Source: Planctomycetota bacterium (GTDB taxonomy: Bacteria; Planctomycetota; UBA8108; SXIK01). From it: a DNA stretch of 64,000 nt. Positions 2,033-37,186 of the stretch are shown piece after piece. Under the pieces are notes generated by a model. It worked only from the letters and a program-made list of their open reading frames with translations, was not told where the DNA came from and ran no database searches. A program made the position numbers and the translations under genes. How positions within the stretch are numbered: the stretch's first letter is position 1; every line of letters begins with the position of its first letter. Location of the stretch: positions 9,024,001-9,088,000 of the forward strand of contig OZ244999.1 in assembly GCA_965223265.1 (NCBI GenBank), given 5' to 3'.

Positions 2033-2372
2033 GACGGAGATGGAGACAGACTTAGAGACAGATTCAGACGCAGAGGCAGATTCAGAGACAGAGACAGAGA
2101 CAGATTCAGACTCAGATTCAGACTCAGACTCAGATTCAGATTCAGATTCAGAGACAGACGCAACGCGCCCACGCACACGGGAACGGGAACGGGAACGGCC
2201 GAGCGCACGCCGACAAGGCCGGACGGCACACGGAGAGGCTGTGAGTTTTTGAGAACGAGTGGTGGCGACGCACGGTCACAGTCACGTTCGACGGTCGCGT
2301 CCAGAACGGCACCCGGCGCGTGCCTGCTACTTGAGCACTCGCACACCCCACACGCACACGCACTCGCTCACG
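2033..2372 (+). repeat. Bipartite hexamer-periodic low-complexity repeat, copy A
   Basis: GAGACA/GATTCA/GACTCA run at ~2033-2160, followed by ACGCAC/ACGGGA/CACTCG-type runs; intergenic between convergent genes. Confidence 0.85.
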
Positions 2373-9370: not shown

Positions 9371-9612
9371 GGAGGCGGAGACAGAGACGGACACAGAGAC
9401 AGAGACGGATACGGAGTCAGATACCGATGCGGAGACAGAGACGGACACAGAGACAGAGGCGGATACGGAGTCAGATACCGATGCAGAGACAGAGATAGGA
9501 GAGACACAGAGACCGAGTCGGACTCAGAGGGGACGCGAACGCCTACGCAAACGCAGAACGCCCACGCCCACGCCCACGCCCACGCAAACGCAAACGCAAA
9601 CGCAAACGCAAA
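9371..9612 (+). repeat. Bipartite hexamer-periodic repeat, copy B (includes a 54-bp tandem duplication)
   Basis: GAGACA/GACACA/GATACG run begins right after the TAG at 9368-9370, then (ACGCCC)n(ACGCAA)n. 54-bp unit starts at 9375 and 9429. Confidence 0.9.
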
Positions 9613-15127: not shown

Positions 15128-15378
15128 ACTGCGAGTGCGAGTGCGATTGCGAGTGCGAGTGCGTGTGCGTGGGCGTGGGCGTGGGCGTGTGCGTGTGCGT
15201 GTGCGTGTGCGTGTGCGTGGGCGTGGGCGTGCGAACCTCCCCGCCTGTCTCTGTATCCGCCTCCGCTTCTGCCTCCGCCTCCGCCTCTGGTATCTGTCTC
15301 TGTATCCGCCTCCGCCTCCGCCTCTGTAGCTGAATCTGTATCTGAATCTGTATCCGCTTCTGCCTCCGCCTCTGCCTC
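15128..15378 (-). repeat. Bipartite hexamer-periodic repeat, copy C
   Basis: On the minus strand, a GAGGCA/GAGGCG/GATACA/GATTCA run starts right after the RluA stop, followed by (CACGCC/CACGCA/CACTCG)n. Confidence 0.9.
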
Positions 15379-20337: not shown

Positions 20338-21663
20338 ATGTCAGGCATGGGAACTTCTCGTTCGAATCCGTCAACCACAGCCACGCGCCGAGCGTTTTTG
20401 CAGAAAGTGTCTCTGGCGACGGCTGGATTCCTGGTGAGCTCTCCTCTGCCCCGCCTTTGGAGCGGGTCGCCAAATGAGAAACTCAACATCGGTATCGTTG
20501 GCGTCAGCGGGCGTGGGGGCGCGAATCTCAAGGGAGTTGCGCACGAGAATATCGTCGCTCTATGCGACATCGATGACCAGAAGCTTAGTCAAGCCGCGTC
20601 GCAGTTTCCCGGCGCGAAGAAGTACAACGATTTTCGCCTTCTCCTCGACCAGAAAGACATCGACGCGGTTGTGATCAGCACGCCTGATCACATGCACGCG
20701 CCGGCCACGGTAGCCAGCCTGAAGGCTGGAAAACACGTCTACTGTGAAAAGCCGCTGACGCACTCGGTGTACGAGGCCGACGTCGTTCGTACTCTCGCCA
20801 TGGAAAGCAAGCTGGCGACGCAAATGGGAACGCAGATTCACGCGCTCGACAATTACCGTCGCGTCGTCGAACTCATTTCGACCGGAGCGATCGGGAACGT
20901 CCACGAGGCGCATGTTTGGGTCGGGAAGTCATGGTCGGGCGGAGATCTTCCGAAAGAGCGTCCTCCCGTTCCCGCGCATATCCATTGGGATCTTTGGCTC
21001 GGGCCGGCTCCAGCGCATCATCGTTACCATCCGACGTTGCTGCCGGCGAATTGGCGTCGCTGGTGGGACTTCGGCGGAGGCACTCTCGCCGACATGGGAT
21101 GCCACTACCTTGACCTGCCGTTCTGGGCTCTCAATCTTCAACACCCCACGAGAGTCAGCCCTCTTGCTGGTTCGCCCGTGCATGCTGACGGCGCTGGCGA
21201 CAAACTCGTGATTCGCTACAAGTTTCCGGCGCGCGGTACGCTGCCGCCCGTGACCCTGACGTGGTACGACGGTGGCCAGAGGCCGCCGCACTTCGCTCAA
21301 GGGCTTTTGCCCGAATGGGGCGACGGAGTTCTTTTTGTCGGTCAACGAGGAATGTTGATTGCCGGCTATTCGAAATACCAGCTCTTACCCGAGAGCGATT
21401 TCTCCGAGTTCGAGCCGCCAGCGCCATTCATCCCAACTTCGGTCGGGCACCATCAGGAGTGGATCGACGCTGCCAAGACGGGAGCGCCGACGACGTGCAA
21501 CTTCGGGTATGCGGCGACGCTGACGCAGACGGCGCTTCTCGGCAACGTCGCGCATCGTGTCGGTCGGGAATTCGCCTGGAACGGGCAAGACCAACAGGCG
21601 CCGAATTGCCCCGAGGCCGGCCGCTACTTGCGGCGTGAGTACCGTCGAGGCTGGACGCTGTAG
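20338..21663 (+). CDS. Gfo/Idh/MocA family oxidoreductase with Tat signal
   Basis: TRRAFLQ twin-arginine; IGIVGVSGRG, STPDHMH, HVYCEKP, WDLWLGPAP, DMGCH. Confidence 0.93.
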   Translation: MSGMGTSRSNPSTTATRRAFLQKVSLATAGFLVSSPLPRLWSGSPNEKLNIGIVGVSGRGGANLKGVAHENIVALCDIDDQKLSQAASQFPGAKKYNDFRLLLDQKDIDAVVISTPDHMHAPATVASLKAGKHVYCEKPLTHSVYEADVVRTLAMESKLATQMGTQIHALDNYRRVVELISTGAIGNVHEAHVWVGKSWSGGDLPKERPPVPAHIHWDLWLGPAPAHHRYHPTLLPANWRRWWDFGGGTLADMGCHYLDLPFWALNLQHPTRVSPLAGSPVHADGAGDKLVIRYKFPARGTLPPVTLTWYDGGQRPPHFAQGLLPEWGDGVLFVGQRGMLIAGYSKYQLLPESDFSEFEPPAPFIPTSVGHHQEWIDAAKTGAPTTCNFGYAATLTQTALLGNVAHRVGREFAWNGQDQQAPNCPEAGRYLRREYRRGWTL

Positions 21664-21728
21664 CTATTTGGCACTGGCCGATCGCGCTGAGACGAGAAAG
21701 GAGCGCGAAGGCGGGAGGGCGACCGCGG

Positions 21729-21812
21729 CGATTGCGTGGGAGTGGGAGTGCGGCCCGTCTCCGTGTCTGGATCCGTATCTGTTTCTGATGCTGCCTCCGC
21801 CTCTGAATCTGT
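21729..21812 (-). repeat. Bipartite hexamer-periodic repeat, copy D (left flank of four-helix-bundle gene)
   Basis: CGATTGCGTGGGAGTGGGAGTG followed by GCCCGTCTCCGTGTCTGGATCCGTATCTGTTTCTGATGCTG (21753-21793), 40/41 identical to 22441-22481. Confidence 0.85.
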
Positions 21813-21851
21813 AGCAGGGGTCACTGTACGGCGGCGGTCATTGTCGAGTGT

Positions 21852-21929
21852 ACGCGGTGCTCGGGGCAGTCAAGGGTGCCCTCGCTGCGCTCGGCGCTTC
21901 GCGCCCTTGACTGCCCCTCCGCTCCGCGT
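21852..21929. promoter_or_regulatory. Long inverted repeat / stem-loop upstream of four-helix-bundle gene
   Basis: GGGGCAGTCAAGGG (21863-21876) and CCCTTGACTGCCCC (21904-21917) form a perfect 14-bp IR, extended by ACGCGG/CCGCGT. The loop holds CTCGCTGCGCTCG; TTGAC lies in the stem. Confidence 0.65.
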
Positions 21930-21995
21930 TGGGGGTGGAGTACCGCCGCCCGGACGTGGCGGGCTTTCGACTCACCTTTTCTGCGGAGGCTTCAC

Positions 21996-22319
21996 ATGCG
22001 TTTCATCGCTCTCGATGTTAGTCTCGCTTTGATTGGCGATTTGCGAATTCCTTTGGCGCGGCTTCGGCGGCTCGATCCCGATCTGCATCGGCAGCTTCGG
22101 CGCGCTGCTTCTTCGGTGGCGCTCAACCTCTCGGAAGGCGCCGAGCGCGCTGGGAAAGATCGCCAGCACCTCTTTCGCGTCGCGCGCGGCAGTGCGCGCG
22201 AGGTCGAGACCGCGCTACGACTGGCTCTGGCTTGGGGCGATCTGAGAAGCGACGACGTCACGACGCCTCTCGAGACGCTTGATCGCCTGCTCGCGCTTCT
22301 TCGCGGGCTGACTCGCTGA
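21996..22319 (+). CDS. Four helix bundle protein (23S rRNA intervening-sequence protein / Avd-like family)
   Basis: GGAGG RBS at 21985; 107 aa with QLRRAASSVALNLSEG and FRVARGSAREV, matching the family motifs QxxRAaxSixxNiaEG and iArGSxxE. Confidence 0.92.
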   Translation: MRFIALDVSLALIGDLRIPLARLRRLDPDLHRQLRRAASSVALNLSEGAERAGKDRQHLFRVARGSAREVETALRLALAWGDLRSDDVTTPLETLDRLLALLRGLTR

Positions 22320-22332
22320 GCGTGCGAGCCCA

Positions 22333-22360
22333 TGCGCCCGCCACGTTCGCGGCGGGCGCA
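22333..22360. terminator. GC-rich hairpin downstream of four-helix-bundle gene
   Basis: TGCGCCCGCC / GGCGGGCGCA perfect 10-bp stem with 8-nt loop ACGTTCGC; no strong U-tract. Confidence 0.45.
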
Positions 22361-22387
22361 CTCCCTTACGTTTTCGATGAGGCGGCG

Positions 22388-22530
22388 CCCGTGGGCGTGA
22401 ACGATTGCGTGTGCGTGTGCGTGTGCGTGGGCGTGGGCGTGCCCGTCTCCGTCTCTGGATCCGTATCTGTTTCTGATGCTGTCTCTGCCTTTGCCTCTGA
22501 ATACTGCCTCTATCTCTGTCTCCGCCTCTT
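22388..22530 (-). repeat. Bipartite hexamer-periodic repeat, copy E (right flank of four-helix-bundle gene)
   Basis: (GCGTGT/GCGTGG)n then a TCTGTC/TCTGCC-type run ending a few bases from the stop of the 22534-23763 gene; shares the 41-bp core with copy D. Confidence 0.9.
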
Positions 22531-22533
22531 GAC

Positions 22534-23763
22534 TCAGCTACCACGCGTCCAGCGGACCAGCGCGTCGCTGAGACCCGGCCAGCCCGCGGCCGTAGCGACC
22601 ACCAGCTCTGCCATTCTTGGCCGCAAAAGCGCCGCCTGAAGCAGCCCACCGACGCGAAGTCGCGTTCCGTATTCCTTCTCCCATTGGCGATGCCACGCCG
22701 CGCCGCGCCAAGGCTTGTCCATCACGTCGGTGCCTGGCTGCGGCGTGAGCCGCCGCGCGAGCGCGCGAGCGCTGTCGAGCGCCATGGCCTGTCCATCGCC
22801 GCAGAGCGGCGAAATCATGCCGGCGGCGTCGCCGACGCGCGGGAAGTCGCTGTCGATTGAACGCGTTCTCTCCATGGCGCCGGCGGCAATGGTGAGAGTC
22901 GGTGTCGCCTCCGGAATGAGGGTCGCGAGGCGCTCGGCAAGAAGCGGGTTCTGACGACCGAGGGCAAGCGCGAGCGTCTCCCAGCGCGAGCTTTCCAGGC
23001 GTTTGATGAACGACGCTCTCAGGAAGGCACAGACATTGACCAGCTGATCTTGGATCGCGACGATTCCACAGTACCCGCCTCGGACGAGGTGGACCTCGAC
23101 CGTGCGTTCGAGAGCGCGACGTCCTTCCAGAGCCGTGGGTGCGAAACGATGGTGGCGTTTGACGCCAACGAAGAGAGGTCGTCGCCTCACTCTCAGCGGT
23201 TTCCGGTGGCGTCTGGGAGCACCGGCGACCGGTTGCACGGTTTGTTCCAAACGCCCTTCGCGACCATACGCTCCGATGACAAGCGCCGCCACGACGGACT
23301 CTTCGCGTCGGCGGTTTTCCATGCAGCGATAGGTGACTCGGCGAACCTGGTTTGAGCTTGTCGCTCCCTCGACGCGGATAACCTCCGTGCCTTCGCGCAC
23401 CGAGACTCCCGACGTCACTGCATTCTTGAGCAGAATCGAGTCGAACACACGGCGGCTGATCCCAAAGCCGTCGCCGGGCAGGCTCGTCTCGACCACGCGT
23501 CCTGCCGGTGTGGAGAATCGTGCCTGGGAAACGCGGGAAGCACCGGCTGCGACGACGGCATCCAGACAGCCCAGCTCTTGAAGGACGGGTAATGATTCGG
23601 GCGAGAGGAACTCACCGCAGAGCTTGTCACGTGGAAAGTGCTCGCGCTCGAGAAGAACCACTCGCTGTCCTGTCCGCGCCAGAAGCGTCGCCACGGTACT
23701 GCCGGCGGGACCACCACCAACGACGGCGACATCGAACGGCTCTGGTTCCAAGCGCTGAATCAC
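22534..23763 (-). CDS. NAD(P)/FAD-dependent oxidoreductase (geranylgeranyl reductase/FixC-like)
   Basis: DVAVVGGGPAGS, FPRDKLCGEFLSPE, GDAAGMISPLCGDGQAMA. Confidence 0.9.
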   Translation of the reverse strand: MIQRLEPEPFDVAVVGGGPAGSTVATLLARTGQRVVLLEREHFPRDKLCGEFLSPESLPVLQELGCLDAVVAAGASRVSQARFSTPAGRVVETSLPGDGFGISRRVFDSILLKNAVTSGVSVREGTEVIRVEGATSSNQVRRVTYRCMENRRREESVVAALVIGAYGREGRLEQTVQPVAGAPRRHRKPLRVRRRPLFVGVKRHHRFAPTALEGRRALERTVEVHLVRGGYCGIVAIQDQLVNVCAFLRASFIKRLESSRWETLALALGRQNPLLAERLATLIPEATPTLTIAAGAMERTRSIDSDFPRVGDAAGMISPLCGDGQAMALDSARALARRLTPQPGTDVMDKPWRGAAWHRQWEKEYGTRLRVGGLLQAALLRPRMAELVVATAAGWPGLSDALVRWTRGS

Positions 23764-33252: not shown

Positions 33253-33667
33253 GGGGCGAGTCGACCTGAGTGTGGAGCCGTCCGGAACGATCGTGATTGG
33301 CTCCTCACTATAGAAGCTAACTCAGTTCCTGCAAAGAGGTTGCTCGTCCGTCGAGTCCGCCTGCAGTCGGCGACTGTGCCCGAGACCTCTACCGTGCACG
33401 AAGATGGTGGGCACGATTCGGGCTGGAGCGCCGTTTTTTCTTCAGATTCTTCTCGACGACGAGTTACTCTATTTGCTCGGAGCGTCTCCGCTCTGTCGAC
33501 TCTCGGCGGCGGTTGGCGCCGGATGTATGGGGCCCATACATCCAACAACGAGGTCTCTGGTTAGCTACGTACCCTTCATCTCGATACCAAGTTATCGAAC
33601 GGCGCTCTCACGGATTGACACCGCTCGAGTTCGCCGCTCTCGACTCTCTTTTTCCGAGGAGGTTCAC

Positions 33668-36600
33668 ATGCGTTGGATTCCTTTGAGCGCTGTCGCTATT
33701 GCTTGTTTTCTAGCGGCACCACTTGCCGCTGGAGAATCGTGCTGCGCGAAGCTCGCACAGGCGCAGAAGAGTGTTGACGCTCTTTTGGCCAAGTGGCAGC
33801 AAGCCGTGGGCTCTCTCGACGCGGACCAGCAGCGAAGCGCTGCCAGCGAGTTCGCGGAGGTAGCGAAGTCTTGCCCGATCGGTTCCCGAGTCCGGCGGAG
33901 TGTTTTCATTGCGCACGATGCATTGGCCGCGGCTGCTAAAGCAGACGAGGAGTGCAGGGCCGCTTGCGCCAAGAAAGAAAAAGGTGAGGTGTGCGCGAAG
34001 TTGGCTGCTGCTGCCAAGGCGCGCTCGCAGCTGATCGGCTCGCTGAAGACGCTGGCGGCGCACGCTGCGTCGGGGCTTGGTCAGAACGAATCATTGGCAG
34101 CCGTCGCCAAGGGTGATGCCGCGTGTGCGAAGAGCAAAGCGGTAGCAGGGAAGGGCTTCTGCGCCAAGAGCGCCGAGAAGCTTGCCACAGCGATTCGCGG
34201 CGAGTCTTGCCAGAAGAAGGGTGCGAAGCTTCTGTTGTCGGAGGTTGAAGGACTGAGCTGTGCGAAGAGCGCCGAGAAGCTCGTTGCTGCGGTTCAGGCT
34301 GCAGGCTGCGCAAAGTCGGGCGGGAAGCTAATCAAGGCGAAGGTCGATGAGCTTGCTGGCGTGAAGGCTTGCGCGAAGAAGAGCGAGGCCTGCGCCAAGA
34401 GCAAAGCTGTAGCTGCGAAGGGTTTCTGCGCCAAGAGCGCGGAGAAGCTTGCGGCGGCGATCCGCGGCGAAGCCTGTCAGAAGAAGGGAGCGAAGCTCCT
34501 TCTCTCTGAGGTTGAGGGTTTGAGCTGCGCGAAGAGTGCCGAGAAGCTTGTCGCTGCGGTTCAGGCTGCAGGCTGCGCAAAGTCGGGCGGGAAGCTAATC
34601 AAGGCGAAGGTCGATGAGCTTGCTGGCGTGAAGGCTTGCGCGAAGAAGAGCGAGGCCTGCGCCAAGAGCAAAGCTGTAGCTGCGAAGGGTTTCTGCGCCA
34701 AGAGCGCGGAGAAGCTTGCGGCGGCGATCCGCGGCGAAGCCTGTCAGAAGAAGGGAGCGAAGCTCCTTCTCTCTGAGGTTGAGGGTTTGAGCTGCGCGAA
34801 GAGTGCCGAGAAGCTTGTCGCTGCGGTGAAGTCAGCAGGCTGCGAGAAGTCAGCTGGGAAGCTGATCAAGGCGAAGGTCGATGAGCTTGCTGGCGTGAAG
34901 GCTTGCGCGAAGAAGAGCGAGGCCTGCGCCAAGAGCAAGGCTGTAGCTGCGAAGGGCTTCTGTGCCAAGAGCGCCGAGAAGCTTGCCACAGCGATTCGCG
35001 GCGAGTCTTGCCAGAAGAAGGGCGCGAAGCTTCTGTTGTCGGAGGTTGAAGGACTGAGCTGCGCGAAGAGCGCCGAGAAGCTCGTTGCTGCGGTGAAGTC
35101 AGCAGGCTGCGAGAAGTCAGCCGGGAAGCTGATCAAGGCGAAGGTCGATGAGCTTGCTGGCGTGAAGGCTTGCGCGAAGAAGAGCGAAGCCTGCGCCAAG
35201 AGCAAAGCTGTAGCTGCGAAGGGTTTCTGCGCCAAGAGCGCGGAGAAGCTTGCGGTGGCGATCCGCGGCGAAGCCTGTCAGAAGAAGGGAGCGAAGCTCC
35301 TTCTCTCTGAGGTTGAGGGCTTGAACTGCGCGAAGAGTGCCGAGACGCTTGTCGCCGCGGTGAAATCAGCAGGCTGCGCGAAGTCAGCCGGGAAGTTGAT
35401 CACGGCGAAGGTCGATGAGCTTGCCTGTGTGAAAGCCTGCGCGAAGAAGAGCGAAGCCTGCGCCAAGAGCAAGGCTGTAGCTGCGAAGGGTTTCTGCGCC
35501 AAGAGCGCCGAGAAGCTTGCGGCGGCGATCCGCGGCGAAGCCTGTCAGAAGAAGGGAGCGAAGCTCCTTCTCTCTGAGGTTGAGGGCTTGAGCTGCGCGA
35601 AGAGCGCCGAGAAGCTCGTTGCTGCGGTGAAATCGGCAGGCTGCGAGAAGTCAGCCGGGAAGCTGATCAAGGCGAAGGTTGATGAGCTTGCCGGCGTGAA
35701 GGCTTGCGCGAAGAAGAGCGAAGCCTGCGCCAAGAGCAAGGCTGTAGCTGCGAAGGGTTTCTGCGCCAAGAGCGCCGAGAAGCTTGCGGCGGCGATCCGC
35801 GGCGAAGCCTGTCAGAAGAAGGGAGCGAAGCTTCTTCTCTCTGAGGTTGAAGGACTGAGCTGCGCGAAGAGTGCCGAGAATCTTGTCGCTGCGGTGAAGT
35901 CAGCAGGCTGCGAGAAGTCAGCCGGGAAGCTGATCAAGGCGAAGGTCGATGAGCTTGCCTGTGTGAAAGCCTGCGCGAAGAAGAGCGAAGCCTGCGCCAA
36001 GAGCAAGGCTGTAGCTGCGAAGGGTTTCTGCGCCAAGAGCGCCGAGAAGCTTGCGGCGGCGATCCGCGGCGAAGCCTGTCAGAAGAAGGGAGCGAAGCTC
36101 CTTCTCTCTGAGGTTGAGGGCTTGAGCTGCGCGAAGAGCGCCGAGAAGCTCGTTGCTGCGGTGAAATCGGCAGGCTGCGAGAAGTCAGCCGGGAAGCTGA
36201 TCAAGGCGAAGGTTGATGAGCTTGCCGGCGTGAAGGCTTGCGCGAAGAAGAGCGAAGCCTGCGCCAAGAGCAAGGCTGTAGCTGCGAAGGGTTTCTGCGC
36301 CAAGAGCGCCGAGAAGCTTGCGGCGGCGATCCGCGGCGAAGCCTGTCAGAAGAAGGGAGCGAAGCTTCTTCTCTCTGAGGTTGAAGGACTGAGCTGCGCG
36401 AAGAGTGCCGAGAATCTTGTCGCTGCGGTGAAGTCAGCAGGCTGCGAGAAGTCAGCCGGGAAGCTGATCAAGGCGAAGGTCGATGAGCTTGCCTGTGTGA
36501 AAGCCTGCGCGAAGAAGAGCGAAGCCTGCGCCAAGAGCAAGGCTGTAGCTGCGAAGGGTTTCTGCGCCAAGAGCGCCGAGAAGCTTGCGGCGGCGATCCG

Positions 36601-37186
36601 CGGCGAAGCCTGTCAGAAGAAGGGAGCGAAGCTCCTTCTCTCTGAGGTTGAGGGCTTGAGCTGCGCGAAGAGCGCCGAGAAGCTCGTTGCTGCGGTGAAA
36701 TCGGCAGGCTGCGAGAAGTCAGCCGGGAAGCTGATCAAGGCGAAGGTCGATGAGCTTGCTGGCGTGAAGGCTTGCGCGAAGAAGCAAGGAAAGTCCGCCT
36801 GCGCCAAGTCGGTTGCCGCTCGCGCGCGTTCTCTCCTGGCTGAACTCGACGGCGCTCCCGCCGAGTTTGCAGCGCTCTCTGAAGCGAAGCGCGGCGAGAT
36901 CTACGCTGGTGTTCACCGCGTCATGGGAAGCAATGCGGCCGCAGCTCTCGTGCCCGAGACGATCATGACCCTTGCGCATGGCTTGGAAGCCCTGACGGCT
37001 GCCGATCAAGCCATGCTGAAGGCGCTCGAGACTCAGGAAGCGATCCGCAAGATGGTGACGCCCGAGATGGAGAGCAAGTTCCGCACCAATGCCGAGGCTC
37101 TCCGCGAGACCAGCGCGCTTCTGCAGAAGGCAGTCGCTGTGATCGAAAGATCGAAAGAGTCTGCCGAGAAGCGAGCTGACGATTGA
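33668..37186 (+). CDS. Secreted Cys/Lys/Ala-rich tandem-repeat protein (10 x 89 aa)
   Basis: GAGGAGG RBS, ATG 33668, signal peptide MRWIPLSAVAIACFLAAPLAA; uninterrupted frame through ten 267-bp units; many unit differences are synonymous; followed by a terminator. Confidence 0.85.
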   Translation: MRWIPLSAVAIACFLAAPLAAGESCCAKLAQAQKSVDALLAKWQQAVGSLDADQQRSAASEFAEVAKSCPIGSRVRRSVFIAHDALAAAAKADEECRAACAKKEKGEVCAKLAAAAKARSQLIGSLKTLAAHAASGLGQNESLAAVAKGDAACAKSKAVAGKGFCAKSAEKLATAIRGESCQKKGAKLLLSEVEGLSCAKSAEKLVAAVQAAGCAKSGGKLIKAKVDELAGVKACAKKSEACAKSKAVAAKGFCAKSAEKLAAAIRGEACQKKGAKLLLSEVEGLSCAKSAEKLVAAVQAAGCAKSGGKLIKAKVDELAGVKACAKKSEACAKSKAVAAKGFCAKSAEKLAAAIRGEACQKKGAKLLLSEVEGLSCAKSAEKLVAAVKSAGCEKSAGKLIKAKVDELAGVKACAKKSEACAKSKAVAAKGFCAKSAEKLATAIRGESCQKKGAKLLLSEVEGLSCAKSAEKLVAAVKSAGCEKSAGKLIKAKVDELAGVKACAKKSEACAKSKAVAAKGFCAKSAEKLAVAIRGEACQKKGAKLLLSEVEGLNCAKSAETLVAAVKSAGCAKSAGKLITAKVDELACVKACAKKSEACAKSKAVAAKGFCAKSAEKLAAAIRGEACQKKGAKLLLSEVEGLSCAKSAEKLVAAVKSAGCEKSAGKLIKAKVDELAGVKACAKKSEACAKSKAVAAKGFCAKSAEKLAAAIRGEACQKKGAKLLLSEVEGLSCAKSAENLVAAVKSAGCEKSAGKLIKAKVDELACVKACAKKSEACAKSKAVAAKGFCAKSAEKLAAAIRGEACQKKGAKLLLSEVEGLSCAKSAEKLVAAVKSAGCEKSAGKLIKAKVDELAGVKACAKKSEACAKSKAVAAKGFCAKSAEKLAAAIRGEACQKKGAKLLLSEVEGLSCAKSAENLVAAVKSAGCEKSAGKLIKAKVDELACVKACAKKSEACAKSKAVAAKGFCAKSAEKLAAAIRGEACQKKGAKLLLSEVEGLSCAKSAEKLVAAVKSAGCEKSAGKLIKAKVDELAGVKACAKKQGKSACAKSVAARARSLLAELDGAPAEFAALSEAKRGEIYAGVHRVMGSNAAAALVPETIMTLAHGLEALTAADQAMLKALETQEAIRKMVTPEMESKFRTNAEALRETSALLQKAVAVIERSKESAEKRADD
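34121..36790 (+). repeat. Intragenic tandem array, 10 x 267 bp
   Basis: GGYTTCTGYGCCAAG (GFCAK) recurs every 267 bp from ~34153 to ~36556. Confidence 0.95.

Follow-up and report, generated by a model that had tools for sequence, protein, structure and literature searches.

The four-helix-bundle gene and the direct repeats at positions 21729-22530 of the 64,000-nucleotide stretch of planctomycete DNA analyzed here (referred to as the window; G000:C1:9024001-9088000, from a single-contig genome, G000, of 9.18 Mb with 60.8% G+C) are part of a dispersed system. The gene with its leader and hairpins makes up a cassette which is well supported as one solo member, of subtype B, of a family of 36-39 units of about 545 bp, and the two direct repeats around it are likewise well supported as neighbouring units of a genome-wide hexanucleotide scaffold. 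The explanation toward which we lean, by a little, is that of a selfish cassette family which resides in repeat arrays and which, we infer, has been moved in trans.

The initial annotation of the locus described a 107-aa open reading frame (ORF) packaged in the order repeat, hairpin, ribosome-binding site (RBS), gene, hairpin, repeat, and this layout was recovered together with the direct repeat itself: the 41-bp core (21753-21793 and 22441-22481) differs between the copies at one of 41 positions, and both copies carry CGATTGCGTG in their 5′ part (21729-21738 and 22402-22411). Aligned without gaps the repeat reaches 59 nt at 90% identity. The core has only these two matches in the window at up to three mismatches, and none of 100 shuffled sequences matched. 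Both repeats are bipartite, with a G/T-rich part of (NGCGTG)-type hexamers (H1) followed by a part of (TCYGNN)-type hexamers (H2). On the + strand the locus reads as follows: the left H1 part, consisting of CGATTGCGTG and GGAGTG units (21729-21752); the left H2 part with the core (21753-21811); the cassette leader (21812-21862), in which the homology of B copies begins at about 21817-21820; the upstream hairpin UH with its 17-bp arms (21863-21917); the RBS, GGAGG, read from the sequence 5 nt upstream of the ATG at 21996 (21986-21990); the gene (21996-22319); a GC-rich, terminator-like downstream hairpin DH (22333-22360, arms 22333-22345 and 22348-22360); a right-junction segment RJ of 36 nt (22366-22401); the right H1 part, CGATTGCGTG followed by TGCGTG/GGCGTG units (22402-22440); and the right H2 part with the second core (22441-22530). 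The junctions between unique flank and repeat (20800-21855 and 22413-23400) were found without differences in short-read contigs of four public runs, which may derive from the source sample and so do not confirm the junctions independently. A fifth public run also contains the stretch, and none of the five is registered as RNA.

The 107-aa protein matches PF05635 with 49.6 bits (cut-off 33.8) and TIGR02436 with 49.5 bits (cut-off 24), and is similar (E value 6.4e-12) to a solved Xanthomonas protein, PDB 2GSC_A, whose entry comprises five chains. The profile match is limited to positions 26/30-105, so the protein falls into a divergent PF05635 subfamily. PADLOC models gave no family for the B protein at E ≤0.01, and we know of no function for the PF05635 family outside diversity-generating retroelements (DGRs). 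The gene had been called lone, which is correct for the locus, where it stands as a single gene, but not for the genome, which contains 39 PF05635 matches, 36 of them above cut-off. They fall into two subtypes, A (match of 234-237 nt) and B (match of 225 nt), the gene at 21996-22319 being of type B. Each of the 36 full copies encodes 107 aa in an intact ORF with an ATG start. Within subtypes the median ratio of nonsynonymous to synonymous divergence (dN/dS) is 0.13-0.14 at a dS of 0.55-0.62, and A and B proteins share 50% of their residues at a dS of 1.76. The 36 paralogues are under purifying selection. A blastn search with 21600-22650 returned three copies of 93-95% identity over 21727-22441 and 16 further places of 79-88% identity over approximately 21817-22372.

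A common plan is present in every copy: a leader motif, UH, about 60 nt with an RBS, the ORF and a GC-rich hairpin after the stop codon. The leader motif, GCGGCGGCGGT..TGTCGA, is conserved in B-type copies and present in A-type copies as well. At the locus the arms of UH (21863-21879 and 21901-21917; 17 nt) are 94% complementary, and folded as RNA the region 21840-21940 reaches -61 kcal/mol (z -4.9 versus shuffles). DH folds with -28.4 kcal/mol (z -3.4), and the repeats themselves fold no better than shuffles (z +0.3 and +0.8). The genome contains about 40 copies of UH. An alignment of 35 of them (29 distinct) shows no variation in the apex, of about 41 nt, within or between A and B, and several pairs of the outer stem occur in two or three standard pair types; the same apex precedes A-like genes in a genome from another family of the order (G007). 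Since the apex stayed fixed as synonymous sites between A and B came close to saturation, UH is evidently a functional cis element, as DNA or as RNA. DH is likewise found in every copy, with compensatory changes, and in A-type copies a run of T follows it. A simple scan for promoters and terminators returned no site of either kind, hence no σ70-type promoter, and Rfam gave no family at E ≤1 for 21500-22700. One further pairing, a 14-nt complement between the 5′ and 3′ untranslated regions (UTRs) of this copy (21951-21964 and 22336-22349; duplex z -3.6), was rejected as a feature of the family, because the duplex z fell below -2 in only one of 36 copies.

Hexanucleotide arrays and the limits of the unit

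Repeats of period 6 stand out in the whole genome: 262 segments were recorded under a strict criterion versus 0-14 for periods 4, 5, 7, 8 and 9, and 496 under a looser one versus 5 for period 5 and 18 for period 7. After merging, 411 period-6 loci cover 54.7 kb, and 345 of them are not near a cassette. The arrays belong to the two classes seen at the locus, G/T-rich (NGCGTG)n (H1) and (TCYGNN)n (H2), which follow each other in the order H1-H2 77 times and in the reverse order 27 times; 21 of the 77 are near a cassette, leaving 56 solo bipartite repeats. The arrays that flank a gene share one orientation, which is reversed between A and B genes, so that at least seven convergent A/B pairs read repeat-A-repeat-B-repeat.

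A period-6 array lies no more than 450 bp from each of the 39 PF05635 matches, as compared with 407 of 5898 other genes (6.9%), a control set of crude calls made from ORFs and G+C at third codon positions (GC3). Arrays are present on both sides of 27 of the 39 matches and of 17 of the 5898 controls. Whole units have been duplicated, so the 39 copies are not independent and the Fisher P values are overstated. PF05635 genes are nevertheless strongly enriched for flanking arrays over other genes, the opposite of the outcome that the initial annotation had named as speaking against its cassette. Of the 17 other genes with arrays on both sides, nine look by eye like low-complexity ORFs that fall within repeats, and the set contains no other recurring family.

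Reading rightward, the four closest copies have in common an H1 run that varies, the H2 core, the cassette, RJ and the start of the next H1 part, and are divergent beyond these limits; in all four the left edge of the duplicated unit is the 41-bp core. The scaffold of both repeats is pre-existing or co-duplicated. At 6.96 Mb of G000 there is a gene-less paralogue which aligns with 21750-21812, then directly with 22357-22405 and after that with the ends of the right repeat: both repeats and RJ are kept and the cassette (approximately 21813-22356) is missing. Because both repeats are retained there, the gene unit of about 545 bp is likelier to be the unit of insertion or deletion than the 688-bp segment from repeat to repeat.

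Relatives, other phyla and known systems

PF05635 exceeded the cut-off in six of 41 genomes (40 relatives and this one), a patchy distribution that agrees with the proposal of the initial annotation, and no match was found in three same-family genomes, among them an assembly of 7.9 Mb in 4 contigs. The sequence (TCYGNN)6 has 1172 matches in this genome, 226 in G014, 191 in G017, 72 in G007 and 38 in G005; the five genomes with at least 38 matches are all among the six PF05635 carriers, and the others have at most 18, 32 of them none, in counts to which kin contribute non-independently and in which metagenome-assembled genomes (MAGs) lose repeats. (GCGTGN)5 is confined to this genome, apart from five matches in G012. 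In G007, G017, G014 and G005 a period-6 array lies within about 400 bp of 11 of 17 PF05635 loci retrieved, many of which are at contig ends.

Beyond the close relatives, PF05635 is very common and is present in 172 of 301 sampled genomes of the phylum. A scan of one genome per species provided 40 loci from Myxococcota, Bdellovibrionales, Oligoflexales, Planctomycetota and others, in which 27 short tandem arrays, mostly of period 6, were found no farther than 500 bp from the gene (in 34 kb; 0.79 per kb) versus 21 in 202 kb of farther flank (0.10 per kb). A Myxococcota-like contig of 1 Mb (L047:2860-5807) contains (TCCGAG)x66, a convergent pair of four-helix-bundle genes, x58, a second pair and x71; the start codon of each of these genes is located in one arm of a hairpin of at least 20 bp, and one frame is open from the hairpin arm through the array into the next gene. 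At 20 canonical loci from 14 genomes of the same phylum, 31 arrays of periods 7 and 9 were recorded within 500 bp as compared with 20 in 99.6 kb farther away, and inverted repeats of at least 28 bits, built of heptamer or nonamer units, bracket 13 of the 20 genes but only 2 of 40 control windows. These canonical same-phylum cassettes share the build of the ORF-bearing intervening sequences (IVSs) of 23S rRNA. They (L155-L174, e.g. L165:2883-3383 and L161:2932-3361) are situated in short intergenic gaps, with inverted arms of 17-41 nt, and each has its own repeat unit, even inside one genome; in the two loci that were read, a TTAACTGCA motif recurs beside the arms. According to the accessible part of one report, '23S rRNA IVP' is among the new associations of adaptation modules of clustered regularly interspaced short palindromic repeats (CRISPR) (PMC10910872). 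We speculate that this association might partly stem from array look-alikes near such genes.

The best described carriers of this protein family are the 23S rRNA IVSs. The helix-45 IVS of Coxiella burnetii, which carries S23p, is, in the accessible text of its description, a horizontally acquired selfish element of 428 nt that is excised by RNase III, and its ORF is decaying and not translated in vivo (PMC4990558). As far as that text allows the comparison, the cassette resembles it in the PF05635 protein, in its compactness (about 430-550 bp) and in having one small ORF between structured, repeat-like flanks, and differs in that 36 intact copies under selection stand here against a decaying ORF there. 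The cassette is, moreover, placed between protein genes and not in helix 25 or 45 of 23S rRNA; an RBS and a terminator-like hairpin are part of it, and its flanks are long direct hexamer arrays where an IVS has a pairing stem. We class it with the gene inserts flanked by repeats that are known from 23S rRNA, as a large local variant of them. With Avd, the accessory protein of DGRs (PMC10053308, accessible part), it shares a homologous four-helix-bundle fold and a basic, presumably nucleic-acid-binding, character, whereas no cassette has the adjacent reverse transcriptase of a DGR and no pair of template and variable repeats was seen.

Two other comparisons concern the repeats. Genomes with repetitive extragenic palindromes (REPs), their bacterial interspersed mosaic elements (BIMEs) and REP-associated tyrosine transposases (RAYTs) have a counterpart in a hairpin that opens with GTAG, present here in 351 copies and clustered around one Y1-like gene, and in intergenic mosaics with other short motifs; this holds for the genome, not for the locus, which has arrays and no REP hairpin. 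No classical BIME that includes a protein gene or long hexamer microsatellites is known to us. Integrons are similar in their small single-gene units between recurring site-like repeats, which here too form arrays of repeat-gene-repeat-gene. The cassettes differ in bringing their own expression signals, in their scattered chromosomal positions and in containing a single gene family; on inspection by eye, a short GC-rich stem forms the 3′ hairpin and hexamer arrays come after it, with neither an imperfect palindrome of the attC type nor an adjacent integrase, although no search aimed at IntI or attC was made.

The heptameric short tandemly repeated repetitive (STRR) sequences of cyanobacteria are intergenic tandem repeats. 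Abundant arrays of 6-9-nt units, comparable to those described here, are on record for other bacteria, such as TAACTGA (PMC4679880) and the G-rich heptamers of Xanthomonas and Nostoc (PMC4692102), and the accessible parts of these two reports neither mention the 23S IVS/four-helix-bundle family nor draw a link between array and gene. Our literature search, which was without most subscription journals, found nothing linking the PF05635 family to flanking tandem repeats.

Explanations for the spread of the cassettes

The cumulative GC skew places the origin of replication at about 7.9 Mb and the terminus at about 3.5 Mb, and DnaA-like genes lie at 5.35 and 7.96 Mb. In counts that enter paired copies twice, 16 of 17 A genes point in the direction of replication and 15 of 19 B genes are head-on to it, compared with 51-54% co-directional among all genes, and in 143 of 211 H2 arrays the leading strand is the purine-rich one. 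The polarity is tied to the array-cassette structure and not to the direction of transcription, which points to a replication-linked process.

In the explanation that we mildly prefer, the cassette would be a selfish gene that encodes no recombinase, and within the arrays it would come and go as a whole. Copies would reach new arrays by array-to-array recombination or by template switching during replication, with the arrays serving as homology arms or landing pads, and an alternative route might be provided by REP/RAYT single-strand machinery acting in trans. The basic protein, by analogy with Avd and 2GSC, would act as an oligomer binding the invariant hairpin and/or the repeat units, and such binding would keep the cassette expressed and propagated. 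The genome is a clear natural experiment in this respect, with 36 copies, two subtypes, one closed contig, a gene-less paralogue, an invariant hairpin and a polarity, and the system makes it testable why these genes are always flanked by repeats and whether they move.

A number of observations weigh against selfish spread, in addition to the crude control genes and the non-independent copies behind the array counts. No excision or deletion junction was found in the contigs of the four runs. No empty orthologous site was found in 30 relatives searched at the DNA level, in which the GFO gene upstream of the cassette had at most 70% DNA identity; the flanking protein is only about 62% identical in the nearest genomes and synteny is lost at the cassette, which accounts for the lack of such a site (in G001 the permease-GFO synteny ends at the GFO stop codon, and a metagenome scan with the GFO protein gave a best identity of 61%). 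The gene-less paralogue may have lost the unit by deletion or never have received it. The cassette ends showed no terminal inverted repeats, and as these ends lie inside variable microsatellites, precise termini, target duplications and inverted ends are not definable. The dS values within subtypes mark the family as old, with no recent burst: only one subgroup, of four copies, is about 94% identical. Near-identical flanks occur in only five of 36 copies. Finally, purifying selection on all 36 proteins would fit a family useful to the host as well.

Such a host gene family seems to us rather unlikely. In it the four-helix-bundle proteins would serve the cell, for instance by binding hexamer arrays, the arrays would be operators, insulators or slippage switches, and the copies would have arisen by segmental duplication. 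It would suit the 36 intact ORFs with their dN/dS of about 0.14, the provision of each copy with its own RBS, conserved 5′ hairpin and terminator-like hairpin, the life of their own that arrays have at the 345 of 411 loci away from cassettes, and the co-occurrence of arrays and four-helix-bundle genes across genomes. It does not lead one to expect 36 near-redundant paralogues here when a search of the three same-family genomes yielded none, nor the same cassette design with other repeat units in unrelated phyla, nor a gene-less copy of the scaffold. The head-on polarity of B genes is contrary to what selection on expression would predict, and the simple scan gave no σ70-type promoter.

The initial annotation noted that no reverse transcriptase, transposase or integrase is present, and this holds at the locus; elsewhere the genome has a RAYT-like gene and an element with a large serine recombinase. 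The former is the sole clear Y1_Tnp gene, at 4.2067-4.2071 Mb (G000:C1:4206247-4207644, L032). It is flanked by a hairpin repeat, SH, which opens with GTAG followed by a palindrome, a start that we take to be like that of classical REPs, and whose 13-nt word occurs 351 times in the genome at up to one mismatch: three SH lie upstream of the gene and eight tandem units of 59 bp, each composed of SH and H1 (CACGCN) hexamers, downstream. These downstream arrays could pass for CRISPR arrays. A possibility that we judge unlikely is that the cassettes are passengers carried between SH hairpins and H1 tails, moved as single strands on the lagging-strand template by this one transposase. The gene scores best on NF047646 (REP_Tyr_transpos), with 56 bits as compared with 18.9 for the IS200 model, though this is under the equivalog cut-off of 80 of the NCBIfam model. 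Of the 351 SH, 90 have an H1 array no more than 60 bp away, with a co-orientation of 90:4, and two direct SH bracket four of the 19 B copies. Elements of the IS200/IS605 kind show an orientation bias relative to replication, and the cassettes have one of this kind. At this locus, in contrast, no SH was found within 1.1 kb of the gene (G000:9046080) and only H1/H2 arrays are present; UH and DH resemble neither SH nor each other; and (GCGTGN)5 is restricted to this genome and one relative (five matches), whereas four-helix-bundle genes and H2 arrays occur in several others, in which SH was not searched.

Four RVT_1 genes with identical scores and frames of 449-455 aa (G000:C1:1895554, 3424405, 3516453 and 5913461) probably represent a single retroelement in several copies, for example a group II intron; none is near a cassette, all four being more than 100 kb from any PF05635 match. 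The element with the serine recombinase, 2.75 kb in length, is inserted in the 5′ arm of a UH, at a place equivalent to 21869-21874, with GTCAAG on both junctions. Its six copies, of 95-99.7% identity (G000:C1:7186418-7189162, L031, and at 6.78, 8.98, 8.60, 2.58 and 8.84 Mb), encode a 702-aa large serine recombinase (Resolvase, Recombinase and Zn ribbon, XisF-like) and a 149-aa ORF, and the element appears to use the multicopy UH hairpin as its attachment site.

A bolder form of selfish spread, and quite a long shot in our estimation, is that PF05635 proteins and short tandem arrays are a self-propagating pair which needs no recombinase: repeats or hairpin bound by the oligomer on single-stranded or replicating DNA would stall or redirect the replication fork, template switching would copy the cassette into other arrays, and the solo arrays across the genome would be landing pads or footprints. 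If this is true, the ORF family of 23S rRNA IVSs would count as a new class of mobile genes, and its repeat flanks in many phyla would be explained.

The excisable unit proposed in the initial annotation, the 688-bp segment from repeat to repeat, which would be lost by recombination between the two 41-bp cores and leave a solo repeat, does not hold up as a trait of the family and is very improbable as the mobile unit. Its attractions are the direct, 40/41 identical cores, a second copy (G000:6976310) that also has the core on both sides, and the 56 solo bipartite repeats away from cassettes. At G000:6976310, however, the right core comes only after about 900 bp of H1/hairpin array, and the other two members of the closest group of four lack the right core. 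The similarity between the upstream and downstream arrays of a copy exceeds the 95th percentile of cross-locus pairs in just 5 of 36 cases, so that near-identical flanking arrays were rejected as a rule of the family, and the gene-less paralogue retains both repeats. The predicted 688-bp skip or circle junction did not appear in the contigs of the four runs, which are blind to rare forms: they break at 21855 and 22413, and no joint skips 688 bp or 21813-22356. The joints recorded (skips of 96 bp and 72 bp, and go-backs) are short-sided and can be accounted for by paralogues or by variation in array length. Least probable is an RNA-level cassette of the IVS type, whose flanks would pair in the transcript, be cut by RNase III and release the four-helix-bundle mRNA, since for all the 17-41-nt inverted arms of canonical same-phylum cassettes and the 14-nt UTR complement of this copy (duplex z -3.6), the arrays here are direct and not inverted, they fold no better than shuffles, and 5′-3′ pairing is significant in one of 36 copies.

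Neighbouring genes and other repeats of the window

The flanking genes are unrelated, as described initially, according to their profile matches: a GFO/IDH/MocA oxidoreductase lies upstream (20338-21663, + strand) and a convergent FAD-binding oxidoreductase downstream (22534-23763, - strand), the right repeat ending 4 nt from the stop codon of the latter. Solo repeats of the same class were also correctly reported elsewhere in the window. The one at 15130-15378 (+) is a bipartite H1-H2 repeat of the same orientation, without a cassette. Those at 9378-9612 (-), which reads (CAGANN)n then (ACGCNN)n on the + strand, and at 2047-2198 (-) have the opposite orientation, and the last is followed by the remnant of a split REP-like hairpin up to about 2372. 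A recurring module of about 45 nt (CCCCAAYGTTGCRAAAGAGA...CTTAAGACCG-like) was noticed beside H2 arrays at 2368-2405 of the window, at 5762.9 kb of G000 and between several A/B pairs, as a further piece of the repeat mosaic. A repeat of another kind occurs at 33404-37186 (+), where an ORF of 1260 aa contains about ten Cys/Ala/Lys-rich repeats of 89 aa with CAKS motifs, encoded by a 267-bp tandem repeat in 9.9 copies of 92% identity (34130-36784).

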